A stretch of DNA of 64,000 nt from an uncultured Solirubrobacterales bacterium (GTDB lineage Bacteria > Actinomycetota > Thermoleophilia > Solirubrobacterales > Solirubrobacteraceae): assembly GCA_963703775.1 (NCBI GenBank), contig CAVPFP010000029.1, positions 17,105 through 81,104 on the forward strand. The letters run 5' to 3'. Made by a program: the position numbers and the translations under genes. This document shows, one piece after another, positions 16,090 to 44,674 of this stretch. Numbering within the stretch: the stretch's first letter is position 1; each line of letters begins with the position of its first letter. The notes under the pieces were generated by a model. That model did not search any database and was not told where the DNA came from. It worked only from the letters and a program-made list of their open reading frames with translations.

Positions 16090-19000
16090 GATTGCGCCTG
16101 CTGCTCGCGAGGCCGCGGAGGACCGTCCGGCGGCGTCCGACGGGGCCGCGGCTTCGCCCGTTGCGCGGCGGGCGGCCGACGCGCACTCGGTCGATCTCAC
16201 GAGGGTCGCCGGCTCCGGCCCGCGCGGGCGGATCACGAAGGCGGACGTCCTGGATGCGGCCACCCAGCCCGCCACCGAGACGGCGACGGCGATCAAGGGC
16301 GGAGCGGCGATGCTCGTCCACTACATGGAGGAGAGCCGCAAGATCCCGACCGCGACGAGCTTCCGCACGCTTGCGGTCGGCACGCTCGAAGCGCGGCGCG
16401 GCCAACTCAAGCAGGCCGGAAAGAAGGTTTCCTTCACACACCTGATCGCGTTCGCGATCGCGCGGGCGGCGGCGGCGCTACCGGTGATGACCCAGCACTT
16501 CGCCGAGATCGACGCGATCCCCCACCGAATCGACGACGGCGCCGTCAACCTCGGCCTCGCCGTCGACGTCGAGCGCAGGGACGGATCACGCACGCTGATG
16601 GTGCCGGTCGTGCGCGACGCCGGGAACATGGCGTTCGACACGTTCCTGGCCGCTTACGACGAGCTAGTCGACCGCGCGCGGACAAACAGCCTGACCGCCG
16701 ACGACCTCCAGGGCGCGAATATCACGCTGACGAACCCCGGCGGCATCGGCACCTCGGCGTCGGTACCGCGCCTGATGGCAGGGCAGGGCACGATCGTCGC
16801 GGCGGGCGCGATCGCCTATCCCCCGGGCCTTGCTGGCGTTGGCGCCGAGCTCGGCGCGGACAAGGTGATGACGCTGACCTCAACCTATGACCACCGGATC
16901 ATCCAGGGGGCGGAGTCCGGGCGCTTCCTCGCGCAGATCGAATCGCTGTTGGGCGGTTCGGACTCGTTCTATGACGCGGTCTTCGCAGCGCTCGGCCTCG
17001 AGCTCCCGCAACAGACGCGGGCAACGCCGGCGCCGCAGCCGGCGAGCGCCGGCGCTCCAAACGAAGAGCTGCTCGCCGCTGTTCAGTCCGCCGTCTCGCT
17101 GGTGCGAGCGCACCGCACGTACGGCCACCTGGCGGCGAAGCTCGACCCGCTCGGCTCGCCGCCGGTCGGGGACCCGTCGCTTGACCCCCACCCGCTCGGC
17201 CTCACGCCGGAGCTGATGGCGCAGATCCCGGCCCGGATCCTCAAGATCCACGTTCCCGGCCGGACGCTCGCCGAGGCCTACCCGCACCTGCAAGAGGTGT
17301 ACTGCGGCACGATCGCCTTCCAGATCGAGCACATCGGCTCCCATCGTCAGCGCACCTGGCTGCGCGAGAAGATCGAGGGCGGAGCGTTTCGCCAACCGCT
17401 CACCGATGACGAGCGCCGCGCGCTGCTCAAGCGCCTGGTCGAAGTCGACGCGCTCGAGCGCTTCATGCACAAGGCCTATCTCGGCCAGCATCAGTTCTCG
17501 ATCGAGGGCGTCGACATGACCGTGCCGATGCTCGATGAGATGATCGCCCTCGCCGCCGGCGACGGCGCGGAGGAGGTTGTGATCGGGATGGCTCACCGCG
17601 GTCGGCTGAACGTGCTGGCCCACGGTCTTGGACGCGCCTACGAGTCGATCTTCGCGGAGTTCGAGGGTGCGACGATGCTCGATGCGATCACGACGAACAA
17701 GCCGCAGGGCGGCACCGGTGACGTCAAATACCACCACGGCGCCCAGGGCGCGAAGCGTCTGCCGTCGGGCCAGCTCGTCCGCGTCAACCTCGAGTCGAAT
17801 CCGTCGCACCTCGAGTACGTCGCACCGGTCGTGATCGGCGCCACGCGCGCGGCGCAAACGACCCACGAGGGGTCACGGATGGCGCAATCCGTGACCCGCG
17901 CGGTGCCGGTCGTGATCCACGGCGACGCGGCCTTCCCCGGTCAGGGCGTCGTCGCGGAAACGCTGAACCTCCAGGCGCTCGACGGCTACCAGGTCGGTGG
18001 CACGCTGCACCTGATCACGAACAACCAGATCGGTTTCACCACCGAGCCCGACGACGGGCGCTCGACGCGTTGGGCCTCCGATCTCGCGAAGGGCTTCGAC
18101 GTTCCGATCATCCATGTCAATGCCGACGATGTCGAGGGCTGCATCCAGGCGACGCGACTCGCCTATGCCTTCCGCGCGGAGTTCGGGCACGACACATTGA
18201 TCGACCTGATCGGCTACCGCCGTTACGGGCACAACGAGGCCGACGAGCCGGCCTACACGCAGCCCGAGATGTACAACACGATCAAGACCCATAAGCGCGT
18301 CAGCGAGCTATGGGCCGATCAGCTCATCGCCGCGGGCGTCGTCAGTCGAGAAGAGGTCGCCGCCCAGCAGCAGGCAGTCTGGGATGTCCTCGCCCAAGCC
18401 CATCAGGAGCTCAAGGAGAAGCTCGCCCAGGTGGCCGAAGGCGGTATCCACGACCAACCGACCGGCGAGTACCGGCTCGACAGCACACCCTCACCGGACG
18501 TCATGACGGCCGTGCCCGTCGAGGTGCTCTCGGAGCTGAACGAGCAGCTTCTGCGGGTTCCGGAGGACTTCACGGTCCACCCGAAGCTCGCGCGCTTCCT
18601 CGAGTCGCGCCGCGAATCATTCACCACCGGCACGGGCATCAACTGGGCGCACGCGGAGGCGCTCGCTTTCGCCTCGCTGCTACGCGAAGGCCACCCGATC
18701 CGCCTGACGGGCCAGGACACCGAACGCGGCACCTTCAGCCAGCGCCACCTCGTCCTGCACGACGCCCGCACCGGACAGACGATCTGCCCGATGCAGAGCC
18801 TGCCGGCAGCAACCGCCGGTTTCGAGCTCTACAACAGCCCGCTTTCCGAGCTCGGCTGCCTGGGGTTTGAATACGGCTACAGCCAGGAGGCTCCGCAAAC
18901 GCTCGTGCTCTGGGAGGCGCAGTTCGGTGACTTCGTCAACGGCGCCCAGGTGATCGTCGACCAGTTCATCGCGTCCGGTCTCGCAAAGTGGGGGCAAACC

Positions 19001-22787: not shown

Positions 22788-24440
22788 ATGCCCGGTGAAT
22801 ACATCTTCCAGACCTACAAGCTCGGCAAGGTCCACCCGCCCGACCGCAAGGTGCTCGAAGACATCTCGCTTTCGTTCTTCTTCGGTGCGAAGGTCGGGGT
22901 CCTCGGCTACAACGGCGCCGGCAAGTCCAGCCTGTTGCGGATCATGGCCGGCGTCGACGGCGAATATCGCGGCGATGCGCAGCTGGCGCCCGGAGCGAAG
23001 GTTGGCCTGCTCGCGCAGGAGCCTGCGCTCGACCCGGCCAAGACGGTGCGGGAGAACGTGCTCGAGGGGGTGGGCGATCTCGTGGCGCTCGTCGAGCGCT
23101 TCAACGAGCTCGCGGCCAACTACTCCGATCAGACCGCCGACGAGTTCGCGCGCCTTCAGGAGCAGATCGACGCGGCGGATGCTTGGAACCTCGACACGAC
23201 CGTCGAGTATGCGATGGATGCGCTGCGCTGCCCGCCCGCGGACGCGGCGGTTGAGCACCTCTCCGGCGGTGAGCGCCGGCGCGTCGCGCTCTGCCGGCTG
23301 CTGCTGAGCCAGCCCGACCTGCTGCTGCTCGACGAGCCGACCAACCATCTCGATGCCGAGTCGGTCGAGTGGTTGGAGCGCCACCTCGCCGAGTACAAGG
23401 GGACGGTGGTCGCCGTCACCCACGACCGCTATTTCCTCGACAACGTCGCCGGCTGGATCCTCGAGCTCGACCGCGGACGCGGGATCCCCTATCAGGGCAA
23501 CTACTCGGGTTGGCTCGAGCAGAAGCAGGCGCGCCTCGCGCAGAGCGAGAAGCAGGAGAAGGCGCGCCAGCGAACGATTGCCGCCGAGCTCGAATGGGTG
23601 CGCCAGAACCCGCGCGGTCGCCAAACGCGCAGCAAGGCGCGCCTCGCGCGCTACGAAGCGCTGCTCGCGGAGGAGACGGACGTCAAGCTCGACGAAGTCC
23701 AGATCCACATCCCGGCGGGGCCGCGACTCGGTGACCTCGTCATCGAGGCGCAGGGCCTGCGCAAGGCCTACGGCGAGAAGGTGTTGTTCGAGGATCTGTC
23801 GTTCTCACTGCCCCGTGGGGGCATCGTCGGCGTGATCGGACCGAACGGGGCGGGCAAGACGACGTTGATGCGACTGATCACAGCCCAGGAGGAGCCCGAC
23901 GGCGGCGAGCTGCGCGTCGGCGAGAGCGTCGAGCTCGCCTACGTCGACCAGTCGCGAGACGCGCTCGACGACGCGAAGTCGGTATGGGAGGAGATATCCG
24001 GCGGCCACGATCAGATCAAGGTCGGGGAGCAGTGGATGAGCTCGCGCCAGTACGTCGCCTCTTTCAACTTCAAGGGCTCCGACCAGCAGAAGCAGGTGGC
24101 CAAGCTCTCCGGTGGCGAGCGCAACCGCCTGCACCTGGCGAAGCTGTTGCGCAGCGGCGGCAACGTCCTGCTCCTCGACGAGCCGACCAACGACCTCGAC
24201 ATCGACACGCTGCGCGCCCTCGAGGAGGCTCTGCTGACCTTCGCCGGCTGCGCGGTCGTCGTCTCGCACGATCGCTGGTTTCTCGATCGCGTCGCCACGC
24301 ACGTGCTCGCCTTCGAAGGCGACAGCCGCGCAACGTGGTTCGAGGGCAACTTCGAGGCCTACGAGGAGCACCGCCGCGCCGTGCTCGGGCCCGAAGCCGA
24401 CCGCCCCAAGCGGATCACGTACAAGCGCCTCGTTCGCTGA
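22788..24440 (+). CDS. ettA: energy-dependent translational throttle protein EttA (ABC-F)
   Basis: Track ORF of 550 aa: MPGEYIFQTYKLGKVHPPDRKVLEDISLSFFFGAKVGVLGYNGAGKSSLLRIMAG.. Two NBDs with an inter-domain linker; diagnostic N-terminus. Confidence 0.95.
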   Translation: MPGEYIFQTYKLGKVHPPDRKVLEDISLSFFFGAKVGVLGYNGAGKSSLLRIMAGVDGEYRGDAQLAPGAKVGLLAQEPALDPAKTVRENVLEGVGDLVALVERFNELAANYSDQTADEFARLQEQIDAADAWNLDTTVEYAMDALRCPPADAAVEHLSGGERRRVALCRLLLSQPDLLLLDEPTNHLDAESVEWLERHLAEYKGTVVAVTHDRYFLDNVAGWILELDRGRGIPYQGNYSGWLEQKQARLAQSEKQEKARQRTIAAELEWVRQNPRGRQTRSKARLARYEALLAEETDVKLDEVQIHIPAGPRLGDLVIEAQGLRKAYGEKVLFEDLSFSLPRGGIVGVIGPNGAGKTTLMRLITAQEEPDGGELRVGESVELAYVDQSRDALDDAKSVWEEISGGHDQIKVGEQWMSSRQYVASFNFKGSDQQKQVAKLSGGERNRLHLAKLLRSGGNVLLLDEPTNDLDIDTLRALEEALLTFAGCAVVVSHDRWFLDRVATHVLAFEGDSRATWFEGNFEAYEEHRRAVLGPEADRPKRITYKRLVR

Positions 24441-34142: not shown

Positions 34143-35480
34143 CTAGGTCGCCGCGCTCTGTCCGCGGCGCGACACGGCGTCCACGATCACCGCTGCCAGC
34201 AACACCAGCGCCGTGATCATGAACTGGAAGTCGGCGGAGAGGCTTAGCAGGCCCATGCCGTTGTAGATCGTCGCGATGACGAGGCCGCCGAGTAGCGCGT
34301 GGACCATCTTGCCGCGACCGCCGAGCAGGCTCGTGCCGCCGATCACCGCCGCAGCGACGCCGTAGAGCACGAGCTGGCCGCCGTCGGTGTCGGTATTCGC
34401 ACCGCCCGTCCGTGAGTCGAGGATGATGATCGCCGCGGCGGCACTGAGGCCGGCGAGCGTGTAGCAGAGCACACGCACGCGGTGGACGTTGATGCCCGCG
34501 CGGCGCGCGGCTTCGCGGTTGCCGCCGATCGCGTAGATGTAGCGGCCAAAGCGCGTGCGGTTCAGGACGAAGGTCCACACGACGACGATCCCGATCACGA
34601 TCGGCACGACCCAGGGGATGCCCTCGACCGTCGTGCCCTTGAAGACCGCGCGGTTGACGCCACAGACCGCGACGAGCGCGGCGCCGCCCGCGGCGACGGC
34701 GGCGATCTTGGCAACCGTCAGGGCAAGCGGCGGAGCCACTAGACCCCCGGCCCGCCGCCGGCGATCGCGCGTCAAGCTCAGGGCGGCGTAGAGCACGATC
34801 GCGACCGCGAGCACGATCCACCCGGCCGTGACGCTCATGTTGCCGTTGACGATGTCGTAGATCGTGGTGTTGGTGATCCGGATCGAGCCACCGTTCGATG
34901 GGCTCTGGTTGTTGATCACCCAGATCAGGAAGCCCTCCCAGAACAGCAGGCCGGCGAGCGTGACGACGAACGGCGGAAGGCGCAGCCGGGAGATGATCTG
35001 CCCCTGCGTGAAGCCGATCGCAGCGGTCGTGGCAAGGCCCGACGCGATGGCGAACGGCCAGCCGAGGTTGATCGGTGGGTAAGCGAGAATCGTCATCACC
35101 GCTGCCCCGACGGCGCCGGAGTAGCCGAGCGAGAGGTCGATCTCCCCGAGCAGCAGAACGAAGATCTCCGCCATGCCGAGCACCACGAAGGCCGCCGCCT
35201 GCTGGAGGAGGTTTGCGAAGTTCAGCGCCGTGAGGAAGCGCGAATCCTCGATCTGGAAGACGATGATGATCGCGATCAGGCCACCGACGACGGGCAGTAC
35301 GCCGCTCTGGCCGCTGCGCACCCGCTTGAACCAGGCACTCAAGTACTCGTTGACGGTCGCGTCCGGCGGTAGCGCCATGAGATCGCGGTCGAGCGTCACC
35401 TGGTCGGCTGCGGTCTCCTCCTCGATCGCGGGAGGCGCCGTGACCTCGCCGAGGTGCTGCGGCTTGTCGGTTGTGCTCAT
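34143..35480 (-). CDS. sugar ABC transporter permease (CUT2, xylose/ribose-type)
   Basis: Track ORF of 445 aa with ~10-12 hydrophobic helices and a typical CUT2 permease layout (..GEIDLSLGYSGA.., ..GGTSLLGGRGKMVHALLGGL..). Confidence 0.9.
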   Translation of the reverse strand: MSTTDKPQHLGEVTAPPAIEEETAADQVTLDRDLMALPPDATVNEYLSAWFKRVRSGQSGVLPVVGGLIAIIIVFQIEDSRFLTALNFANLLQQAAAFVVLGMAEIFVLLLGEIDLSLGYSGAVGAAVMTILAYPPINLGWPFAIASGLATTAAIGFTQGQIISRLRLPPFVVTLAGLLFWEGFLIWVINNQSPSNGGSIRITNTTIYDIVNGNMSVTAGWIVLAVAIVLYAALSLTRDRRRRAGGLVAPPLALTVAKIAAVAAGGAALVAVCGVNRAVFKGTTVEGIPWVVPIVIGIVVVWTFVLNRTRFGRYIYAIGGNREAARRAGINVHRVRVLCYTLAGLSAAAAIIILDSRTGGANTDTDGGQLVLYGVAAAVIGGTSLLGGRGKMVHALLGGLVIATIYNGMGLLSLSADFQFMITALVLLAAVIVDAVSRRGQSAAT

Positions 35481-36341
35481 CAGATCCTCGCCGCTTCAGG
35501 GACGCCGTTCTCCCGTTCGCTCAACACTCCGGTCGTCATGATCTCGACCGCGCTCTGGCGGTCATAGTCCGATGCGGGGCCGGCGGATACGAGCCGGCCG
35601 AGGTGGAGTATCGCCACGCGGTCGGCGACCGCGAACACGTCGTTGAGGTTGTGCGAGATCAGGAGCACGGCGATCCCGCTGCCGGCGAGGCGCTTGATCA
35701 GGTCGAGCACCATCGCCGTCTGGGACACGCCGAGCGCCGCGGTGGGCTCGTCCATGATCACGAGCCTTGCATCGCCCATCACCGCGCGGGCCACGGCGAC
35801 GCTTTGGCGCTGGCCGCCGGAAAGCGAGCCGACCGGCTGGCGGATTGAGCGTACGGAGGTGACCGAGAGATCGGCGAGCGTCTTGCGGGCGGTCAGCTCC
35901 ATCGGCGTCTCGTCCAGCATGCCGCGACTCAAGGTTTCCGCGCCGAGGAACATGTTGGCGACGATGTCGAGGTTGTCGCACAGCGCCAGGTCCTGGTAGA
36001 CGGTGGCCACGCCGAGCGTGGTGGCGTCGTGCGGAGTGCGAATCTGAACTCGTTCGCCGTTCCAGTGGATCTCGCCGTGGTCGGCTTCGTGGATCCCCGC
36101 GATCACCTTGATCAACGTCGACTTGCCCGCCCCGTTGTCGCCGAGCAGCGCGGTCACCTGTCCCGCCGGCGACATCGAGATCTACGGCGTCGAGCGCAGT
36201 GACCGGCCCGAAGTGCTTCGAGATGCCGTGCAGCGAGAGCAGCATCTGGCCTGCGGGGCTGGGCTCCCGGTCCGCCGAGGCGGACCGGGAGCCATACCCG
36301 TCCTGCGATTCGCTAGCCGCGTCTGTGGAATCGGCCATCAT
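35480..36341 (-). pseudogene. sugar ABC transporter ATP-binding protein with a single NBD, one frame break
   Basis: Track ORFs 35562..36341 (N-terminus ..MLLSLHGISKHFGPVTALDAVDLDVAGG) and 35480..36175 (QVTALLGDNGAGKSTL..LSGGQRQSVAVARAV..LVIMDEPTAALG..LLISHN..). Removing one base near 36161 restores DLDVAGGQVTALLGDNGAGKS. An alternative start is at 36245. Confidence 0.85.
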
Positions 36342-36391
36342 CGTCCGGAGCCTATAGAACGCGACTTTTCTTGCCTACTCGACTTTCGTGC

Positions 36392-37627
36392 CTACTTGAT
36401 CTTGTACTTGGCGCAGTCCGCGGCGTACGACGGGCCCGAAGGCGGCGCGCCGGCGCAGATCTGCGATGCGGGGACGAACTTGTCCTTGACGACCGTCTTC
36501 TCGATCGTCGCCGCCGTGACCCACTCCGGGGTCTCGAGCACTGATGGGATGCTGACGTTCGCGACGCTGTCCGTCGTCGAGCCGTTCAGCAGGGACTTCG
36601 GCACCGACACGTTTGCGCGTGCATACATCGCCAGCGCGGCCGCCGCCTGCGCCTCCAGGAAGACCGGCTTGTAGACCGTTCCGCACTGGTAGCCGCTGAT
36701 GACGTTCTGCAGACCCGGTAGTGAGGCATCCTGCCCCGTCGTCGGGAACGTGTTGGGCTTGACGCCCTGCTGCTGCAGGTAGGTGATGATCGCAGCGGCC
36801 GTCGCGTCGTTAGCCGTCAACGTCGCGTTTGCGGTCGGGTGCGCGGTGAATGCCTGCTGGAATTGCGTTTCAGCGGTCGGCGGATCCCATGTTCCGGCGA
36901 GGTAGCCGTTGGCGCCCTCGAGATCGGTCCACCCACCACCGTTGAACTTCGCGTTCAGGACGCTGAAGTAGCCCTGCGCGAACTGCGTCGCGTTGTTGTC
37001 CGTCGCGGCGCCGTGGTTCACGATGACCATCGGGGTCTTGACGCCCCATGCGGTGACGCAGTCAACGAGCCCCTGGCCCTCGAGCGCGCCGACCTTGACG
37101 TTGTCGAAGCTGACGTAGTACTTGCCGGTGGTGGCACCGCCGAGGGTAAGACGGTCGTAGTCGATCGTCTTGACGCCAGCCGCCGTATCCGCCTTCTCCA
37201 CCTGGTCGCCGGTTGCTGAGTCGACCGGAGTGATCAAGATCACCTTCGCGCCAGCCGTGATGTCCGACTGGTCGTCGGTGATGAAGGTGGAGTCAGAGCC
37301 CTGGGCGTTCTGGATGATGATGTCGCTCGACTTGAGGCCGGCGGCCGACAGCGCCTTCTTGAGGTACGGCGCGTCGAACTCCGTCCAGCGGGTCGAGGAC
37401 ACCGTGTCCGGAAGGATCACGGCCACCTTCCCCTTGGCCTTCTTGGCGAGGGGGACAAGGGCCTTCATCGCCGAGAACGACGTGTTGAAGTCCTTGGAAC
37501 TGAGGTTCTTGTACGTCACGGCCGGCTTAGCCTTGGCCGCGAAACTGCTCTCGCTCGCAAACAGCACGCCGGTGATAGCCACCGACACGATGCCGACAAA
37601 AGCGAGTCTGCTCCTAAGCAGAGACAT
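36392..37627 (-). CDS. sugar ABC transporter substrate-binding protein (periplasmic-binding-protein type I, secreted)
   Basis: ATG at 37627 within track ORF 36392..37702. Signal peptide MSLLRSRLAFVGIVSVAITGVLFASESSFA, then ..KVAVILPDTVSSTRW..AKVILITPVDS.. Confidence 0.85.
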   Translation of the reverse strand: MSLLRSRLAFVGIVSVAITGVLFASESSFAAKAKPAVTYKNLSSKDFNTSFSAMKALVPLAKKAKGKVAVILPDTVSSTRWTEFDAPYLKKALSAAGLKSSDIIIQNAQGSDSTFITDDQSDITAGAKVILITPVDSATGDQVEKADTAAGVKTIDYDRLTLGGATTGKYYVSFDNVKVGALEGQGLVDCVTAWGVKTPMVIVNHGAATDNNATQFAQGYFSVLNAKFNGGGWTDLEGANGYLAGTWDPPTAETQFQQAFTAHPTANATLTANDATAAAIITYLQQQGVKPNTFPTTGQDASLPGLQNVISGYQCGTVYKPVFLEAQAAAALAMYARANVSVPKSLLNGSTTDSVANVSIPSVLETPEWVTAATIEKTVVKDKFVPASQICAGAPPSGPSYAADCAKYKIK

Positions 37628-37721
37628 GCTTCGGTCCCTCTCTCTCTGATCACATTGCTGTGCTACCGAGGCCGGCGCAACGCGTCGCGACCCCCGCAAC
37701 ACGGGAACGAAACGAATCTAG

Positions 37722-37787
37722 GCGTTTTGGCGTAAACGCGACATCAAAGTTCGCGTGGTTTCTGGAACAAGATGTAAACGCGTTTAC
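37722..37787. promoter_or_regulatory. two AT-rich palindromes sharing the half-site AAACGC upstream of the sugar ABC operon
   Basis: GCGTTT-TGGCGT-AAACGC at 37722-37739 and GTAAACGCGTTTAC at 37774-37787, read directly. GTAAACGCG occurs at 37732 and 37774, 42 nt apart. Confidence 0.4.
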
Positions 37788-37794
37788 GTCTTGT

Positions 37795-38511
37795 TTATTC
37801 GGGCGCGAGCCGGTAGCCGACCCGGGGCTGGGTGAGGATCAGCGGCGGGCTCCCGGCGGGCTCGAGCTTGGCGCGGAGGCGGCGCACGTAGACCCGGACA
37901 TACTCCGTCTCGGTTTCATACCCCGGCCCCCAGACGCGCCGCAGCAGCTGCGCATGCGTCAGCAGCTTGCCGCGATTGACCACCAGCTCACGCAGCAACG
38001 CGAACTCGGTCGGCGTCAGATGGAGGGGGGCGCCATCGCGGGTCACCTGGCGCCCGGCGAGGTCCATCTCGAGCCCGTCGCCGAGTGCGACCAACGTGCT
38101 CTGCGCCTCGGCGGGAGCGGGGCGCGTGCGCCGCAACGTGGCACTGATCCGCGCAAGAAGCTCGTCGATGCTGAACGGCTTTGTCAGGTAATCATCGGCG
38201 CCCAGGTTCAGCGCCGCGACCTTGTCGTGATCGCCGCCGCGGGCTGAGACAACGACAACGCCGACGCTCGAACGCTCGCGGACCTGCTTGCAGAGCTCGA
38301 AGCCGTCGACCGACGGCAGCATGAGGTCGAGCAGGATCAGGTCGGGCTGCTCGGTTTCGAGGATCTGCAGCACGCGAGCGCCGTCCGTGGACACGACCGT
38401 GTCGAAGCCGCGCACGGTGAGATTCGAGCGAATCAGGTCGACGATGTTCGGATCGTCCTCGACCACGAGGATCTTCGTGGCGAGCGCTGGCTCAGACGTC
38501 GGCGAGGTCAT
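37795..38511 (-). CDS. OmpR/PhoB-family response regulator (KdpE-like)
   Basis: Track ORF of 238 aa: KILVVEDDPNI..DLILLDLMLPSVDG..LGADDYLTKPF.. plus a winged-helix C-terminus (..THAQLLRRVWGPGYETETEYVRVYVRRLRAKLE..). Confidence 0.9.
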   Translation of the reverse strand: MTSPTSEPALATKILVVEDDPNIVDLIRSNLTVRGFDTVVSTDGARVLQILETEQPDLILLDLMLPSVDGFELCKQVRERSSVGVVVVSARGGDHDKVAALNLGADDYLTKPFSIDELLARISATLRRTRPAPAEAQSTLVALGDGLEMDLAGRQVTRDGAPLHLTPTEFALLRELVVNRGKLLTHAQLLRRVWGPGYETETEYVRVYVRRLRAKLEPAGSPPLILTQPRVGYRLAPE

Positions 38512-40999
38512 GGTCCTCCGTGTAGCGGTGCGAGGGGTCCGGCTCGCCGATTGGCAGCGTCACGGAAAAGCGCGTGCCATGGTCGAGCCTCTCGAGCACG
38601 ATCTCGCCGAGATGGGCGTCAACGATTCCCTTTGCGATCGACAGCCCGAGGCCGGCGCCGGCCGCTGGACCGACGCCGCCGTTGCGGGCCTCGAACAGCG
38701 CGCTCGCCACTGCCTCCGGAAGACCGCCGCCGTCGTCGGTCACGGTTACGACGACGCCCTGCCCCTCGTCCCCGGTGGCGTTGACCACCACCCGCGTGCC
38801 GGGGGGGTTGTGGCGCAGCGCGTTCTCCAGCAGGTTCAAGAAGACCTGCTCGAGCCGATCGTGATCGGCCCAGATCACCGGCAGATCGTCCTGGCAATCG
38901 ACGTCGATCACAGCCGCCTGGGTCGGCGAAAGGCATGCGATCGCGGCGTCGATGACCAGTGGCAGCTCGCACCAGTCCGGCAGCATCCGCATCGTCGAAG
39001 ACTCGATCGCCGAGAAGTCGAGCAGGTCACCGACCAGCCGGCCGAGGCGGGCCGACTCGGCGCCGATTCGGGTGAGGAAGCGTGTCTCCGACGCACGATC
39101 CCAGGTGACGTCGGGCGCCATCAGGCTCGACGCGTAGCCCCCGATCGCCGTAAGCGGTGTCCGTAGCTCGTGACTGAGACGCGAGAGGAACCCTCGCTGG
39201 AGCTCCCGCGAACGCCGCAGGGCGCTCGCCTCCTGCCGAGCACGCTCCGATTCCTCGCGCTCGCGAGCAAGGCGTAGCGAATTGGCGGTGTCCTCCATCA
39301 GCGCGACGACATCCGGCGGGGCCGTCGTCGCCCGCCACTGCGCGATCAGGATGCCGCCGCCGTCCGGGGCCGCGAAGCGCACCGCCATGCAACCATCGCC
39401 GCCGGCCGCCATCATGCTCGCCGCGCGCCCCTCACGCGCGTCGCCGCGCCGCATGATCGCCGCCGCCTCGAGCAGGCCGGCGGACGGCGCCACCTTCGCG
39501 CCGGATGAGTCAATGGTGAGCCAACTCTCGGTACCGTCGGCCGAGTCCGAGAGGGTCAGTAGTGCCACGCGCTCGGCGAGGAGCCCCTCTCGAAGCGTGT
39601 TCAGCACGATCGTGAGGGCTTCGGCAAACGGCGGCCCGGCGAGCGTTTCGAGCACGACGCGGATCGTCTCGAGGACGCGGTTGCGCCCGGTGAGCTCGCC
39701 AAGCAGGCGCTCCCGCTCAACAGCGCTCGCGATATAGCCGGCGTAGAGGTTCACGAGCTGGCGCTCGTCGCTCGGGGGGTAGCCCGGAACCTCGCGAAAG
39801 ACGGTGATCACGCCGAGCACGCCGTCAGCGCCCATCACCGGGACCGACCACGAGCTGCGCACCCGGGCCTCGGTTGCCAGCAACCGCCATGGAGCCCACG
39901 CCGCGCTCGAGCGGATATCGAAATCGATCACGGCCTCGCCCGAATGGGCGGCAACTCCGACCGGACCGCCGGCAACATCGAAGGGCAGGTCCGACCATGC
40001 ATCGGCGATCGCGGTCGGCAGGCCAAGCGCCCCGGCGACGCGCAGCCGCCGCTCCTCGACGAGATGCACACACAACCGTGGCGCCCCCAGCGCGCCGGCG
40101 AGCGCCGACACGATCAATGGCAAGCTCGAGGAGGGCTCCGCCGAGGCAAGCTGGTCCGCGAGGCCGTGCAGGCGGCTCAACTGTCGGCGGGCCGAGGAAT
40201 CGACCGGCTGGCCGGAGATGAAGGCGACGATGTCCTCGGGGTGCGATTCGGCCGGGTTGACGTCCGCGGCGATCCGGCCGCGGCGCAGCACGACGATGCG
40301 GTCGGCCAGGCGGAATATCTGATCGATGTCGTGCGAGATCAGCAGGACGGTCGTGCCGCGCTCGCGCACGGTCGCCATCAGCTTGTCGACCTGCGCCGAC
40401 TCGTTCACGCCGAGCGCCGTCGTCGGCTCGTCGAGGACCAGCAGCTTGGGGCGGCTGGCCATCGCGCGCGCTACCGCGACGAGCTGGCGCTCGCCGCCGG
40501 ACAACGTCCCGACCCGCCGCGTCGTGTCGGTCAGCGCAATCCCGAGATCCGCGAGCAGCGCCCTCGCGGCTTCGTGAAAGCGCGGCGTGGATCGCAGCAA
40601 CGGGGATCTCTCGCTGCCGAGTAGGAGGTTCGACGCAACGTCGAGGTTGTCGCAGAGAACGAGGTGCTGCCAGACGACCGTGATGCCGCGCCGCGTTGCC
40701 GCTGCGGGCGTCGACCCGACCCGTTCGCCATTGAGGTAGACGTGGCCGCTGGTCGGGGCCATGTCGCCGCCGATGCAGCGCACGAGAGTCGACTTCCCGG
40801 CCCCGTTCTCGCCGGCGAGCGCGACGGTCTCGCCGGAGCGAATATCGAGGTCGAGCGCGTCGAGCGCGTTGTAACCCTCGTAGCGCACGCTGAGCGCCCG
40901 CACGCGCAGGAGCGGCGCACTCTCGCGCACCGCCGATTCTCTGGGCATGACCACCATCCTAGGCCCTCGTGCCATAAGCAACGACGGTAGCCGCGCCAC
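38492..40999 (-). CDS. soluble sensor histidine kinase with N-terminal ABC-transporter ATPase (NBD) domain, two GAF-like modules, HisKA and HATPase_c
   Basis: Single uninterrupted 835-aa track ORF. NBD motifs: GENGAGKST, VVWQH, LSGGERQ, LLVLDEPT, LLISHD. A GAF-like region follows (..RLCVHLVEERRLRVAGALGLP..VITVFREVPGYPPSDERQLVNLYAGYIASAVERERL..). H-box LSHELRTPLTAI, N-box LLENALRHN, G1 DDGGGL, G2 GAGLGLSI. The start could be 40999 or 40948. Confidence 0.85.
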   Translation of the reverse strand: MARLPSLLMARGPRMVVMPRESAVRESAPLLRVRALSVRYEGYNALDALDLDIRSGETVALAGENGAGKSTLVRCIGGDMAPTSGHVYLNGERVGSTPAAATRRGITVVWQHLVLCDNLDVASNLLLGSERSPLLRSTPRFHEAARALLADLGIALTDTTRRVGTLSGGERQLVAVARAMASRPKLLVLDEPTTALGVNESAQVDKLMATVRERGTTVLLISHDIDQIFRLADRIVVLRRGRIAADVNPAESHPEDIVAFISGQPVDSSARRQLSRLHGLADQLASAEPSSSLPLIVSALAGALGAPRLCVHLVEERRLRVAGALGLPTAIADAWSDLPFDVAGGPVGVAAHSGEAVIDFDIRSSAAWAPWRLLATEARVRSSWSVPVMGADGVLGVITVFREVPGYPPSDERQLVNLYAGYIASAVERERLLGELTGRNRVLETIRVVLETLAGPPFAEALTIVLNTLREGLLAERVALLTLSDSADGTESWLTIDSSGAKVAPSAGLLEAAAIMRRGDAREGRAASMMAAGGDGCMAVRFAAPDGGGILIAQWRATTAPPDVVALMEDTANSLRLAREREESERARQEASALRRSRELQRGFLSRLSHELRTPLTAIGGYASSLMAPDVTWDRASETRFLTRIGAESARLGRLVGDLLDFSAIESSTMRMLPDWCELPLVIDAAIACLSPTQAAVIDVDCQDDLPVIWADHDRLEQVFLNLLENALRHNPPGTRVVVNATGDEGQGVVVTVTDDGGGLPEAVASALFEARNGGVGPAAGAGLGLSIAKGIVDAHLGEIVLERLDHGTRFSVTLPIGEPDPSHRYTEDHDLADV

Positions 41000-41087: not shown

Positions 41088-43861
41088 TCACCCCGAGTCC
41101 GCGGCCGCCCGACGACCGTGCGCGACCGCCCGACGAACCACATAAGGGAGGATGCCGCCGTGGCGGAAGTAGGTCGCCTCCATCGGCGTGTCGATGCGGA
41201 CGCGCACCTCGAACTGCGCGTCGTCGGCGGTGACCTTTGCGATCGTCGGGAGCTCGCCGGCGGCCAGCGGCTCGGCGACGCCGGTGATCGAGAAGGTCTC
41301 GTTTCCGCTCAGGCCGAGGGACGCGGCGCTCTGCCCGTCCTGGAACTGGAGCGGCAGCACGCCCATGCCGACGAGGTTCGAGCGGTGGATGCGCTCGAAG
41401 CTCTCGGCGAGGACGGCGCGGATGCCGAGCAGTAGCGAGCCCTTGGCGGCCCAGTCGCGCGAGGAGCCGGAGCCGTACTCCTTGCCGCCGATGACGATCA
41501 GCGGGACCCCCTCCTGCTGGTAGCGCATCGCGGCGTCGTAGATCGCCAGCTGCTCGCCGTCGGGAAGGTGGTAGGTGTAGCCACCTTCGGGGAGCGGTGT
41601 CCGCCGGCCGCGACGAGGCGGTTGCGCAGACGGATATTGGCGAAGGTGCCGCGCATCAAGACCTCGTGATTGCCGCGCCGCGCGCCATAGGAGTTGAACT
41701 CCGCGGGCTCGACGCCGTGCTCCTGGAGGTAGCGTCCGGCCGGGCTGTCGCGCTTGATCGACCCGGCCGGGGAGATGTGGTCGGTGGTGACGGAATCGCC
41801 GAGCAGCGCGAGGACGAGCGCGCCCTCGATGTCCGACGGCGGGTCGGGCTCCTGCCTGAGGCCTTCGAGGAACGGCGGGCGGCGGACATAGGTCGAGTCC
41901 TCGGCCCAGGCGAAGCGGTCTCCGCTCGGGATCTCCAGGGCGTGCCAATGCTCGTCGCCGTCGAAGACCTCGGCGTAGCGCTTGTGGAACATGTCCGCCT
42001 GAACGGCGTACTGGATCGTCTCGGCGATCTCGTGCCGCGGACGGCCAGATGTCGCGCAGGTAGACCGGCTCGCCCGCCGTGTCCGTTCCGAGCGGGTCGC
42101 TGCGTCGAGATCGATGTCCATCGTGCCGGCGATCGCGTAGGCAACGACGAGCAACGGCGAGGCGAGGTAGTTGAGCTTCACATCCTGGTTGATCCGCCCC
42201 TCGAAGTTTCGGTTACCCGACAGCACCGCCGCGACGGCGAGGTCGTGCTCGTTGACGGCAGCGGAGATCTCGTCCGGCAGCGGGCCGGAGTTGCCGATGC
42301 ACGTGGTGCAGCCGTAGCCGACGAGGTTGAAGCCCAGCTCGTCGAGCGGTTGCGTGAGGCCCGCGCGCTCCAGGTAGTCGGTGACGACCATCGACCCGGG
42401 CGCGAGCGAGGTCTTCACCCAGGGCTTGCGCCGCAGTCCCCGCGCAACGGCGTTGCGGGCAAGCAGCCCGGCGCCGAGCATCACCGAGGGATTCGAGGTA
42501 TTGGTGCAGCTCGTGATCGCGGCGATCACGACATCGCCGTGGTCGAGCTCGACCACCTCGCCGTCGGCGAGCTTCACGCGGGCGGCCGTCGCGTGCGCAC
42601 CGTTCGTGCCGTTCGCCGGGGGGTCGCTCGCAGGGAAGCTGCCGGCGACCGCGTCGTCGAGATAGCTCTCGAGCGTCTCGTGCAGGCTGCGGCGAGCGGC
42701 GGACAGTGCGATCCGGTCCTGCGGCCGGCGCGGGCCCGCGAGGCTCGACTCGACCTCACCGAGGTCGAGCTCGAGGGTGTCGGTGAAGACCGGCTCGCGA
42801 GAGCTCTCGTCGTGCCACAGACCCTGCTCCTGCGCGTACGCCTCGACGAGCTCGATCTGCTCGGTCGGGCGACCGGTCAGTTCGAGATAGCGCAGCGTCG
42901 CGGCGTCGATCGGGAAGATCGCGACGGTCGAGCCGAACTCGGGCGACATGTTCCCGATCGTCGCGCGGTCGGCGATCGGTAGGGCAGCGACGCCGGCGCC
43001 GTAGAACTCGACAAAGCGGCCGACGACGCCCTTGCGCGCGCAGCAGCTGGGCGATCGTGAGCACGAGGTCGGTGGCCGTCGTGCCGTCGCGCAGCTTGCC
43101 GTGCAACTGGAATCCGATCACCTGGGGCAGCAACATCGACATCGCCTGGCCGAGCATCACGGCCTCCGCCTCGATCCCCCCGACGCCCCAGCCGAGCACG
43201 CCGAGGCCGTTGACCATCGGAGTGTGGGAGTCGGTGCCGACGAGCGTGTCCGGATAGGCTCGCGGCAGCTCGCCGCCTTCTTGCACGAAGACCACGCGCG
43301 AGAGGTACTCGAGGTTCACCTGGTGGCAGATGCCGGTATCGGGTGGAACGACCGAGAAGTTGTCGAATGCGCCGCTGACCCCAGCGCAGGAACGCATAGC
43401 GCTCGCGATTGCGCTCGAACTCGCGTTCCACGTTGACGGCGAAAGCGTCGCTGCGCGCGAACGCGTCGACCTGGACCGAGTGGTCGATGACGAGCTCGGT
43501 CGGGACGAGCGGGTTGATTCGCTGGGGGTCGCCGCCGAGCTCGACGATCGCGTCGCGCATCGCAGCGAGGTCGACGACGCCGGGAACGCCAGTGAAGTCC
43601 TGCATCAGCACGCGCGCCGGTGTGAACGCGATCTCCTTGCTCGGCTCGGCGTCGCGCGTCCCATTCGGCGATCGCCGCGATGTCCGCCGCGCTGACGGCG
43701 CCGTTGCCTTCGGTGCGCAACAGGTTCTCGAGCAGAACCTTCAACGAGAACGGCAGTCGCGCAACGTCGAAGCGCTCCTGCAGCGCGTCCAACCTGAAGA
43801 TCTCGAAGCGCCGGCCCCCGACCTCCAGCTCGGCGCGCGCGTCGAAGCTGTTCGCACTCAT
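41088..43861 (-). pseudogene. acnA: aconitate hydratase (AcnA-type), six frame breaks
   Basis: Reassembled from track ORFs 43316..43861, 42877..43611, 42756..43397, 41498..42949 and 41088..41948. Sequence runs MSANSFDARAELEVGGRRFEIFRL..AIAEWDA / [42 protein letters not shown] / [38 protein letters not shown] / [44 protein letters not shown] / [20 protein letters not shown] / [17 protein letters not shown] / ..[41 protein letters not shown].. Confidence 0.9.
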
Positions 43862-43911: not shown

Positions 43912-44674
43912 GTGAGCGCGCTCGAGATCCTCTCGATCCTCGCCGCAGGGCTGGCGGCGGGGACGATCAACGTGGTCGTCGGCTCGGGGACGCTGATCAC
44001 GTTCCCGGTGCTGCTGGCGTGGGGGTTTGCGCCGGTGACCGCGAACGTCTCGAACAGCCTTGGCCTCGCGCCCGGGGCGCTCACGGGGGCTGTCGGCTAT
44101 CGGCGCGACCTGGAAGGTCAGGGGCACCGCGCAGCGCGTCTGGCGCTCGCGACCATCATCGGAGCCGTCGGCGGGGCGGTATTGCTGCTCGTGCTGCCGC
44201 CCTCGGCGTTCAAGTCGATCGTGCCCGTCTTCATCGTCCTCGCGCTCGTCCTGATCGTTGTGCAGCCGCGCCTGAGCGCGCGCCTCGCGCGCCGCGACCG
44301 CCGCGCGCGCAGAGAACCCGCATGCGCCCGGTCGCGGTCTGTTCGCCGCCGTGCTGCTCACGGGCGTCTACGGCGGCTACTTCGGTGCGGCCCAGGGCGT
44401 CATCCTGATCTCGATCCTCGCGATCGGCCTGAACGAGGGTCTGCATCGCGCAAACGCCGTGAAGAACCTGCTGGCGGGGCTGGCCAATCTGACCGCCGGA
44501 ATCGTCTTCGCCTTCGCCGCGCCGCACGTCGACTGGGCCGTCGCGGGCCTGCTCGCGGTGTCATCGATCAGCGGCGGGATCATCGGCGCGCGCTACGGCC
44601 GGCGACTGCCACCGACCGCGCTGCGGGCGCTGATCGTGGCCGTCGCGATCATCGCGATCGTGCGACTCGTGTGA
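43912..44674 (+). pseudogene. TauE/SafE (DUF81) family anion exporter, one frame break
   Basis: Track ORF 43912.. is membrane-like up to ..VLALVLIVVQPRLSARL. Track ORF 44351..44674 (LLTGVYGGYFGAAQGVILISILAIGL..) continues the family in the +1 frame. The break lies somewhere in 44270-44335. Confidence 0.8.

Follow-up and report, generated by a model that had tools for sequence, protein, structure and literature searches.

Organization of the kinase-importer locus

Five genes follow one another on the minus strand of the window (the whole stretch of DNA analysed, 64,000 nucleotides) in the order sensor histidine kinase (K), response regulator, sugar-binding protein, transporter ATPase (T) and permease, and all five lie within it. 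This is the order given in the first-pass annotation of the sequence, whose quoted peptides were also found, six out of six.

K (38492..40957; all features described here are on the minus strand) is an 821-aa cytoplasmic protein, as delineated from Pfam, homologues and an AF2 domain map. Its reading frame is open up to a GTG at 40999, while the start supported by homologues, with which the start of P0001 agrees, is the ATG at 40957. The protein is laid out as an ABC nucleotide-binding domain (NBD), a linker, a GAF domain, a helix, a second GAF-like domain, DHp with His596, and CA; in the numbering of the 835-aa ORF, the Pfam matches are ABC_tran 46-194, GAF 293-428, HisKA 601-667 and HATPase_c 712-817. 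The NBD (aa 17-248; 40214..40909) was delimited by motif conservation, Foldseek and NCBIfam. The tandem GAF region (39317..40126; Pfam GAF and GAF_2, AF2 pLDDT about 80-93) consists of GAF1 at aa 278-395, a connecting helix at 396-440 and the second GAF-like domain at 444-547. It is followed by the kinase core (38555..39316), in which a signalling helix leads into DHp (HisKA, 3.6e-14, with SHELRTPL) and CA (HATPase_c, 1.8e-20). K has the DHp phospho-acceptor His and the CA N, G1 and G2 boxes of a classical HisKA kinase, and H596, N712, G743/G745 and G767-G771 are invariant among 60 homologues.

By hydropathy, K has no transmembrane (TM) segment (KD19 maximum 1.70). Therefore, a signal from extracellular sugar would need to reach it via the transporter or after import. 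AF2 and Foldseek join the NBD to a phytochrome-like GAF-GAF-DHp spine. The top Foldseek matches of the GAF region are the bacteriophytochrome GAF-PHY-HK spines 8upk_A and 9eut_A (650-675 aligned columns), and the whole output half (GAF, helix, GAF/PHY-like domain, long helix, DHp and CA) superposes on full-length bacteriophytochromes, with 8upk_A ranking first (E = 6e-21, 675 columns). In contrast to these proteins, K gives no evidence of a PAS-GAF chromophore pocket, and an N-terminal ABC NBD stands where phytochromes have PAS.

The regulator gene (37795..38511) overlaps the kinase stop by 20 nt and encodes the receiver and winged-helix output of an OmpR/PhoB-family two-component regulator (Pfam Response_reg, 6e-29; Trans_reg_C, 3e-22). 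The binding protein (36392..37627; Pfam Peripla_BP_4, PF13407, 5e-35) is XylF/ChvE-like, its NCBIfam matches to xylF (2e-37) and ChvE (7e-35) both falling under the equivalog cut-offs; a hydrophobic segment at aa 3-30 forms an N-terminal signal or anchor. The permease (34143..35480), the ATG of which overlaps the stop of T (ATGA), has 445 aa and about 10 TM segments by hydropathy. It is GguB/XylH-like (Pfam BPD_transp_2, PF02653, 8.5e-25; NCBIfam GguB, 5.8e-63, under the cut-off), and an EAA-like loop, GGNREAARRAGI, is seen in its translation; no homologue of it was found in the PDB. The locus thus has two of the hallmarks of a CUT2 importer, namely a Cluster-B sugar-binding protein of the Peripla_BP_1/4 fold and a BPD_transp_2 permease of about 10 TM segments with a GGNxxAA loop.

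Conservation of the arrangement in related genomes, which the first-pass annotation had singled out as informative, was confirmed, and it extends to the five genes only. Among the 25 related loci in which the sequence covers the ATPase gene and at minimum the beginning of the permease gene, 24 keep the same order, the exception being a single rearranged locus (L009). Kinase identity over the related loci ranges from 42% to 86%; in every locus, the kinase gene is followed by that of the regulator (66-94% identity). No flanking gene beyond the five is conserved in more than 5 loci. Hence, K, the regulator and the importer form a real, conserved and self-contained five-gene unit.

The K architecture is common to more than 120 full-length homologues (57-96% identity), and we define the family by ABC_tran, GAF, HisKA and HATPase_c in one protein of ~820-850 aa, with the regulator, binding-protein, ATPase and permease genes after it. 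No NCBIfam model names such an NBD-GAF-HK fusion, and a literature search found no paper on it; these kinases are an uncharacterised, unnamed family, of which uncultured soil Actinomycetota have many members. The 28 genome loci found all come from metagenome-assembled genomes, which is probably why the family has gone unstudied so far.

A conserved element upstream of the binding-protein gene

A spacer separates the regulator and binding-protein genes (37628..37794). It had been given as 168 nt and measures 167 nt to the likely start codon, a trivial difference. Conservation in homologous spacers reveals a YGTTNACG element within it, with two sense copies 42 nt apart (37774-37779 and 37732-37737) and an inverted copy (37782-37787) that makes a palindrome, GTAAACGCGTTTAC. 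In 27 homologous spacers we counted 57 such sites, against 5.2 in shuffles, with sense copies outnumbering antisense ones by 34 to 6. Phased pairs occur in 17 of the 27, where 0.016 would be expected; across the whole window, the minus strand has no phased pair other than that of the present spacer. Given this element, the importer operon is the likely regulatory target, whatever the input to the kinase.

The transporter ATPase

T (35480..36341) was reconstructed from the reading frames, from alignment to L087 and L001 and from P0271; once repaired, it has 286 aa and matches Pfam ABC_tran (2.8e-29). The window does not contain the intact ORF of 260-287 aa that had been described for it. Relative to L087 and L001, there is a 1-nt insertion (an extra G) at ~36170, just upstream of Walker A, such that the N-terminus (MMADS...DLDV) and the remainder (QVTALLGDNGAGKST...) sit in separate frames. 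One could take T to be a true pseudogene in this host, leaving K as the only ATPase to energise the importer. The position of the frameshift, right before Walker A, would fit, but we regard this as very unlikely. The window is rich in indels: aconitase is broken four times, into 5 frame pieces, and TauE once, into 2. Furthermore, P0271, which is 97% identical to T, is intact at 286 aa, the rest of the T frame is clean and highly conserved, and T is present in every other locus. Because other genes of the same assembly are also broken and relatives carry the intact gene, the frameshift is almost certainly a sequencing or assembly error.

The usual CUT2 ATPase has two fused NBDs; T has one. The first-pass annotation had seen in this an anomaly that implied a missing partner. 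This does not hold. Single-NBD ATPases 50-61% identical to T are found in operons that combine binding-protein, ATPase and permease genes with an AraC or ROK regulator but no kinase (for example in Kitasatospora, Rhizobium, Arthrobacter and Marinovum); matches extend to 2079 plasmid records. Such ATPases pair with long XylH/GguB-like permeases, commonly in operons without a kinase. Given how common they are there, no absent half needs to be supplied. A single-NBD CUT2 system has in fact been published for Sulfolobus, with its NBD 'probably forming a homodimer' (PMC7264815). The present importer resembles the known single-NBD CUT2 importers (TC 3.A.1.2; the pentose transporter of Sulfolobus acidocaldarius and the XylFGH/GguAB-like operons of Actinomycetota and Rhizobia) in its Peripla_BP_4 binding protein, its single NBD (~260-290 aa in these systems) and its BPD_transp_2 permease (420-445 aa). 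Unlike the present cassette, those operons are under AraC, ROK or LacI-type regulators and have no NBD-fused kinase.

The NBD of the kinase

The K NBD carries Walker A (GENGAGKST), a Q-loop WQ followed by LCDNLD, the signature LSGGERQ, Walker B (LLVLDE) and the H-loop (SHD). Among the 60 homologues, conservation of the Walker A Lys, Q-loop Gln, LSGGQ, Walker B Asp-Glu and H-loop His is complete or no lower than 90%: K55, Q97, S153/G155 and D176/E177 are invariant and H209 is nearly so. By Foldseek, it superposes on transporter NBDs (MalK, rmsd 2.6 Å; TTHA1159, TMt 0.84). Judged by motifs and fold, it is thus a catalytically intact ABC NBD. In the same 60 homologues, the residues after the Q-loop (W96, Q97, L99, L101, C102, N104, L105, A108, N110, L111, L113, G114 and E116) and those of helix 1 (T57, L58, R60, C61 and G64) are invariant or nearly so; from established knowledge of ABC structures, we take these two segments to be the coupling-helix groove.

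The best NCBIfam matches of the K NBD are the N-halves of YtfR, AraG and XylG, which places it in the CUT2 type. That it is a close paralogue of T is correct as to kinship (44% identity over 203 aa, E = 3e-46) but not as to closeness, since K is 0.41 identical to T and 0.42 to unrelated single-NBD ATPases. The motif QDLALCDNLD is common to K, T and the kinase-less single-NBD ATPases and rare in the tandem halves. In the helical subdomain, K is 0.40 identical to single-NBD ATPases versus 0.28 to tandem N-halves; in the RecA core, the values are 0.42 for the single-NBD group and 0.41 for tandem halves. It is thus the Q-loop and helical subdomain, rather than the RecA core, that carry the additional likeness to the single-NBD group. 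In the NBD phylogeny that had been proposed, the K clade stood as monophyletic (197/200 bootstraps), while its split together with the single-NBD group is present in the best NJ tree but is not robust (27/200). From these sequence comparisons, the K NBD branched off the single-NBD CUT2 ATPase lineage long ago and is not a recent duplicate of the adjacent T. Its degree of conservation is similar to that of T (within-group identity 0.63 versus 0.70). Outside the shared motif, much of the K helical subdomain is unlike T and the kinase-less ATPases, so the partner specificity of K could have changed.

The first-pass annotation had also suggested that the K NBD and T form a heterodimer at the permease. 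With one K NBD and one T on each permease dimer, a K dimer would bridge two transporters and read the real transport cycle as a true flux sensor. K and T do strictly co-occur, their motifs are canonical and mutually compatible (Walker A, signature, D-loop region), and both have ALGV after Walker B. However, obligate heterodimers usually show complementary degeneracy, as do the two halves of RbsA-type tandem CUT2 ATPases, and none exists between K and T, which both have canonical Walker A, Q, LSGGQRQ, Walker B-Glu and H motifs. Moreover, K and T are no more identical within a locus (0.416) than across loci (0.411), many operons that lack a kinase have T-type ATPases functioning without K, and the kinase dimer already brings two NBDs together. 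We thus consider such pairing improbable.

The cassette rather suggests that K itself may couple to the importer and sense sugar transport there. There are points against such docking: the tandem GAF domains may provide an alternative, purely cytoplasmic ligand input, conservation around the Q-loop could mirror an intramolecular contact instead, and the transporter is complete without K. K might never meet the permease; its NBD pair would be a repurposed ATP-dependent dimerisation or energy-state switch, the GAF domains would bind an intracellular ligand (the imported sugar or a derivative), and the transporter would merely be the regulatory target, accounting for the synteny. Two GAF-fold domains, a classic small-molecule input, agree with this, as do the transporter's own complete ATPase in every locus and the divergence of the K helical subdomain; the YGTTNACG element would mark the operon as target under any input. 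Nevertheless, this proposal leaves unexplained why the NBD stems from the ATPase lineage of this very type of permease and why the TMD-facing Q-loop segment and the helix-1 Arg60 are invariant, and a literature search found no other transporter-free role for such a kinase NBD. We therefore hold it to be somewhat unlikely, yet a serious competitor to docking.

A proposed route from importer to regulator

We favour the docking of K on the importer because of the synteny, the lack of TM segments in K, its intact NBD, the invariance of the groove, the shared QDLALCDNLD, the selection on the K clade, the spine and the cis-element. It is quite conceivable, if short of probable, that K docks on the permease via its NBDs, reads the cycling driven by the binding protein and induces the importer through the regulator. 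In such a scheme, K and the OmpR-type regulator would control the adjacent sugar ABC importer. K, dimerised via DHp, would engage the coupling helices of the permease dimer with both of its NBDs in place of a T dimer, giving a minority of 'sensor' complexes beside the T-driven 'transport' complexes. Arrival of the sugar-loaded binding protein on the permease would then favour ATP-dependent closing of the two K NBDs, with hydrolysis, and this motion would travel along the phytochrome-like spine of helices (GAF, GAF, DHp) and switch autophosphorylation, in a direction that we infer, as we do the identity of the sugar. Finally, the phosphorylated regulator would presumably bind the phased YGTTNACG repeats that precede the binding-protein gene and induce the importer operon. 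The importer may, with much the same tentativeness, double as a transmembrane receptor, the K NBD competing with the free ATPase for the permease coupling helices, and extracellular sugar, sensed as the binding protein docks, triggering NBD closure and then the kinase switch.

If true, the cassette would hold the first ABC 'transceptor' to have arisen by covalent NBD-kinase fusion and would give a cytoplasmic kinase a route for sensing outside the cell; it would show that an ABC importer is able to act as a receptor. Signalling coupled to transporters (Bce, Pst/PhoU/PhoR, DctA/DcuS, CbrA) is under active study, a field in which coupling of the transporter cycle to a kinase is difficult to study with separate membrane-protein partners. 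NBD closure being an ATP-driven motion that is well understood, the fusion would offer a defined, soluble handle on this coupling. With its compact five genes and conserved YGTTNACG repeats, the cassette would also be directly portable to a heterologous reporter system, and its design could serve again as a sugar biosensor.

Comparison with known transporter-coupled kinases

ChvE-VirA, XylFII-LytS, LuxP-LuxQ and TorT-TorS are binding-protein-dependent sensor kinases whose periplasmic domains touch the binding protein directly. As is proposed for the cassette, the ChvE-VirA class has a XylF/ChvE-class sugar-binding protein bring an extracellular signal to a kinase that induces sugar-transport genes; K differs in having no membrane or extracytoplasmic part.

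By analogy, docking is also backed by two precedents of transporter-coupled kinases, BceAB-BceS and CbrA. In the flux-sensing BceAB-BceS systems of Firmicutes, the ABC transporter is the actual sensor for a kinase that is unable to sense alone, and the transporter genes are induced (PMC4513084, PMC10314905). Bce transporters are exporter-type, FtsX-fold and directed at peptide antibiotics, whereas the present one imports sugar and depends on a binding protein; BceS, with two TM segments, is an intramembrane kinase that makes non-covalent contact via its membrane helices, whereas K is soluble and would make contact through its covalently fused NBD. With a BPD_transp_2 permease instead of an FtsX-fold BceB with its large extracellular domain, and a kinase without TM segments, the cassette is not a Bce-type module by structure, and the likeness is one of logic only.

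Membership of K in the SLC5-STAC kinases was likewise rejected, as it has no SLC5 or STAC Pfam domains and no TM segments. In these kinases (CbrA/CrbS, 'transceptors'), a covalent fusion joins a transporter module to a histidine kinase and ties solute transport to signalling (PMC7096432, PMC13488458). There, the whole membrane transporter domain is fused; in K, by contrast, it is the cytoplasmic ATPase module alone, and K would share with the free ATPase a membrane subunit that is a protein of its own.

The kinase cassette and its gene neighbourhood

The cassette lies on the minus strand of the window (GC ~69%), and the peptides quoted in the first-pass annotation were all recovered from the window translations. 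The kinase gene (38492-40957) sits in an ORF that reaches a GTG at 40999; its 96%-identical homologue P0001 begins at the ATG at 40957. Pfam assigns to the kinase ABC_tran, GAF, HisKA and HATPase_c, and to the response regulator (37795-38511, minus, with a 20-nt overlap with the kinase stop) Response_reg and Trans_reg_C. A 167-nt spacer (37628-37794) separates the regulator from the binding protein (36392-37627, minus; Peripla_BP_4), which is followed by the transporter ATPase, hereafter T (35480-36341, minus; one ABC_tran domain), and the permease (34143-35480, minus; BPD_transp_2), whose own ATG overlaps the ATPase stop. By NCBIfam, and in each case below the equivalog cut-offs, the binding protein is nearest XylF and ChvE, the permease is nearest GguB, and the nucleotide-binding domains (NBDs) of both the kinase and T are nearest the N-terminal halves of the tandem CUT2 ATPases YtfR, AraG, XylG and RbsA; NCBIfam holds no model naming an NBD-kinase fusion. 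Further ABC NBDs occur in the window at 12223-12864 (minus) and 22854-24314 (plus), the latter with two NBD matches in tandem. These are not CUT2-like, share only 24-31% identity with the kinase NBD, and probably belong to unrelated transporters.

More than 120 independent full-length homologues of the kinase, 57-96% identical and with the same four Pfam domains, rule out a gene-fusion artefact. A scan of one genome per species yielded 28 loci that encode a relative of the fusion; each belongs to a metagenome-assembled genome and none to a cultured isolate. They are labelled Solirubrobacterales, 'Streptosporangiaceae', Mycobacteriales and Conexibacteraceae, plus one 'Bryobacterales' (Acidobacteriota) bin, L017, where the fusion may reflect binning contamination or transfer. 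According to the record titles, the sources of the 28 loci are soil, peat or fen.

Gene order was counted in the 25 of the 28 loci that reach through the ATPase and at least the permease start. The order kinase, regulator, binding protein, single-NBD ATPase, permease is kept in 24 of these, so that the gene neighbourhood, whose conservation the first-pass annotation had set as a check, has held. The remaining locus, L009 (13245-19408), is rearranged: its regulator and binding protein are separated by ~3.7 kb of additional genes, among them a permease-like fragment and, ahead of the binding protein, a single-NBD ATPase that is divergent (43% identical to T), and no T orthologue lies between the binding protein and the permease. 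In four loci (L004, L019, L022 and L024, at ~15.9-18.7 kb in each) the one permease gene is replaced by two in succession, whose products are 41-48% identical to that of the window; this implies a heterodimeric permease served by the same single T and kinase. When all flanking ORFs were clustered, only the five cassette genes proved common to the loci, other genes recurring in at most five; the module is therefore autonomous and not bound to one catabolic pathway. The sole clue nearby to a sugar substrate comes from L087, a 97%-related contig, in which an aldose 1-epimerase gene (16422-17522) is found ~4 kb downstream of the permease; this gene is not conserved from locus to locus. In one kinase homologue, P0021 (890 aa), annotated with an additional Response_reg domain, kinase and regulator seemingly form one ORF; this is either a true hybrid kinase or the result of a frameshift across their 20-nt overlap.

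Direct repeats between the regulator and binding-protein genes

The spacer from the regulator to the binding-protein gene contains a hexamer, GTT[ACT]AC (extended consensus YGTTNACG), that recurs in sense orientation. Across 27 non-redundant spacers, 57 sites were counted, against 5.2 in shuffled spacers (maximum 13 in 1000 shuffles), and 26 of the 27 contain at least one site (shuffles, 4.7). A helically phased pair (10-12, 21-22, 31-33 or 42-43 nt) is present in 17 of the 27, compared with 0.016 in shuffles. Furthermore, the non-palindromic variants number 34 in sense and 6 in antisense orientation, and site density is 5.6 per kb in the spacers versus 0.47 across the loci. The direct repeats of the homologous spacers (L001-L028) are phased at 11, 31 and 42 nt. 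In the window, the sense sites at 37774-37779 and 37732-37737 are 42 nt apart and form the sole phased pair on the minus strand across all 64 kb; an inverted copy at 37782-37787 completes a perfect palindrome, GTAAACGCGTTTAC, 6 nt past the regulator stop.

OmpR/PhoB-type regulators bind direct repeats at multiples of ~11 nt. We infer that the cassette's own regulator binds the YGTTNACG repeats, which mark a likely regulatory target. Autoregulation of the kinase promoter via the same repeats was rejected, since the region upstream of the kinase contained no phased pair in the 19 loci searched. A sigma-70 promoter scan of the spacer gave no match, a result that is expected in a high-GC actinobacterium and says little.

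Origin of the kinase NBD

A total of 176 NBDs were aligned over 230 columns: 26 from the kinases (K), 25 from T, seven from single-NBD CUT2 ATPases of kinase-less operons (S), the L009 variant, both halves (N and C) of 58 tandem ATPases including E. coli RbsA, XylG, MglA and AraG, and a LivG outgroup. By neighbour joining (NJ), 197 of 200 bootstraps recover K as a monophyletic group, and 160 of 200 recover T. From these trees we take it that there was one ancient fusion, followed by co-diversification. The phylogeny against the tandem halves, a check proposed in the first-pass annotation, thus separated the K and T clades but left K itself without a firm placement: K joined T and S in the best NJ tree, with only 27 of 200 bootstraps for that grouping, and over the trees of 170-176 NBDs a K+T+S group appeared in 22-27 of 200 bootstraps.

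Mean identity of K is 0.41 to T, 0.42 to S, 0.35 to N and 0.28 to C. The kinase NBD had been described as a close paralogue of the neighbouring ATPase, which is too strong a statement: its identity to the T of its own locus (0.416) is about the same as to those of other loci (0.411). A recent K/T duplication or gene conversion is ruled out, same-locus identity being no higher than cross-locus identity. Descent of the K NBD as an old offshoot of the single-NBD CUT2 lineage fits the alignments better. Three motifs are common to K, T and S and rare in tandem halves: QDLALCDNLD directly following the Q-loop, LSGGQRQxVAVA, and ALGV following Walker B. The extra likeness to T and S sits in the Q-loop and helical subdomain, where the identity of K is 0.40 and 0.39 to T and S versus 0.28 to N; over the RecA-like core it is 0.42 versus 0.41. 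A search of a representative library with the kinase NBD says little about its nearest non-fusion relatives: the sum of two domain scores put tandem ATPases high among the 150 matches listed, and single-NBD proteins ranked below those 150.

The half-size transporter ATPase

In the first-pass annotation, CUT2 ATPases were taken to be tandem as a rule and the half-size ATPase was read as the sign of a missing partner, a reading that does not survive comparison with other operons. ATPases 50-61% identical to T were found in 2079 plasmid or chromid records, and annotated examples are operons of a binding protein, an ATPase (262-280 aa) and a permease (~420 aa) without a kinase; they occur in Kitasatospora, adjoining an AraC regulator, in Rhizobium and Arthrobacter, adjoining ROK regulators, and in Marinovum. 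For Sulfolobus, too, a CUT2 transporter with a single NBD has been published, 'probably forming a homodimer' (PMC7264815). Since single-NBD CUT2 systems occur in kinase-less operons, the importer is complete without the kinase, and a need for the kinase NBD to complete the transporter is ruled out.

In the window, the N-terminus of T (MMADS...DLDV) and its remainder (QVTALLGDNGAGKST...) are in different frames, and alignment to two relatives, L087 and L001, locates one extra G at ~36170; the contig of the closest relative, that of P0001, stops within the binding-protein gene. Comparison with contig L081 (92% identical) shows the aconitase gene (41124-43861, minus) in five frame pieces and TauE (43912-44671, plus) in two. 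The T gene is intact in every related locus, and P0271, 97% identical to T, is an intact protein of 286 aa. The window assembly is indel-prone and probably long-read, and any apparent pseudogene in it is hence suspect. Because indels abound in the window and the T of relatives is intact, the frameshift is treated as an assembly error; there is a very slim chance that it marks a real pseudogene. That the kinase replaces a dead T in this genome is, given the assembly quality, highly unlikely.

Architecture of the kinase

No membrane segment is detectable in the kinase, the KD19 maximum of 1.70 being equal to that of the soluble ATPase, and its ABC catalytic motifs and kinase boxes are all conserved. 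AlphaFold2, run on a 60-sequence alignment (mean pLDDT 77.7, pTM 0.36), gave reliable domains whose mutual arrangement is not reliable: an NBD (residues 17-248), a low-confidence linker (251-277), GAF 1 (278-395), a connecting helix (396-440), a second GAF-like domain (444-547), a continuous helix into DHp His596 (548-612) and a CA domain (661-801). The best Foldseek match in the PDB is a full-length bacteriophytochrome (8upk_A, E = 6e-21, 675 columns), and the NBD superposes on transporter NBDs, e.g. MalK at 2.6 Å. The main rival to the docking model set out below is that the NBD is a repurposed ATP-dependent switch, that the GAF tandem senses an intracellular ligand, and that the transporter is merely the regulatory target; this we regard as rather unlikely.

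The NBD-GAF linker (aa 249-290, window ~40088-40213; SGQxVDSSARRQLSRLHGLADRLAS...) is strongly conserved in sequence, with G249, R257, Q259, L260, R262, L263 and L266 invariant, yet its AlphaFold pLDDT is <50. The linker may become ordered only on dimerisation, adopting a coiled-coil signalling helix.

Histidine kinases form dimers via DHp, so that each kinase dimer (K2) has two NBDs that could pair in a canonical ATP sandwich. The NBDs of obligate heterodimers typically show complementary motif degeneracy; neither K nor T does, which is weak evidence for K2 and T2 homodimers rather than a K-T pair. A K-T heterodimer at the permease would be possible; nothing speaks specifically in its favour, and we deem it improbable.

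The coupling groove and a docking model

ABC structures place the permease coupling helix in a groove built from the Q-loop, the helical subdomain and the helix that follows Walker A. Within the kinase this groove ranks with the best-conserved segments, in alignments of 14 as well as 60 sequences. W96, Q97, L99, L101, C102, N104, L105, A108, N110, L111, L113, G114 and E116 are invariant in the 14 sequences and invariant or at least 90% conserved in the 60, as are T57, L58, R60, C61 and G64. We take Arg60 to be the counterpart of MalK Arg47, whose partner in the MalFGK2 structure is the Glu of the EAA loop. The permease retains its GGNREAARRAGI loop; a sequence search of the PDB returned no homologue of the permease, and no NBD-kinase fusion is present there.

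A soluble kinase, strict synteny, and an NBD that would derive from the very ATPase lineage serving this permease type and that keeps its groove invariant and its catalytic site intact lead us to propose a docking model. K2 would take the place of T2 on the permease dimer, docking through its NBDs; the docked K2 would report binding-protein- or substrate-dependent cycling to the regulator, which would then induce the importer operon through the repeats. Of the readings weighed here we rank this sequence of events first, as plausible, if somewhat short of probable. Its central mechanistic claim is still one that we infer; the observation beneath it is solid, and the module lends itself well to experiment.

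Relation to known systems

The transport half of the cassette is a known single-NBD CUT2 subtype, and on the signalling side there is a standard HisKA/OmpR pair whose spine is phytochrome-like. VirA, in the ChvE-VirA system, is a binding-protein-dependent kinase; the logic is alike, although the cassette kinase has no periplasmic domain. Transceptors of the CbrA type are likewise similar in logic (PMC7096432, PMC13488458), but the SLC5/STAC domain that defines them is missing in the kinase. Flux sensing by Bce systems (PMC4513084, PMC10314905) shares the logic of transporter-coupled two-component sensing, whereas its defining features, an FtsX-type permease and an intramembrane kinase, are missing in the cassette. 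Full-text literature searches turned up no description of an ABC-NBD/histidine-kinase fusion, and database names for the fusion proteins are only 'ATP-binding cassette domain-containing protein' or 'histidine kinase/ABC-type ... ATPase subunit'.
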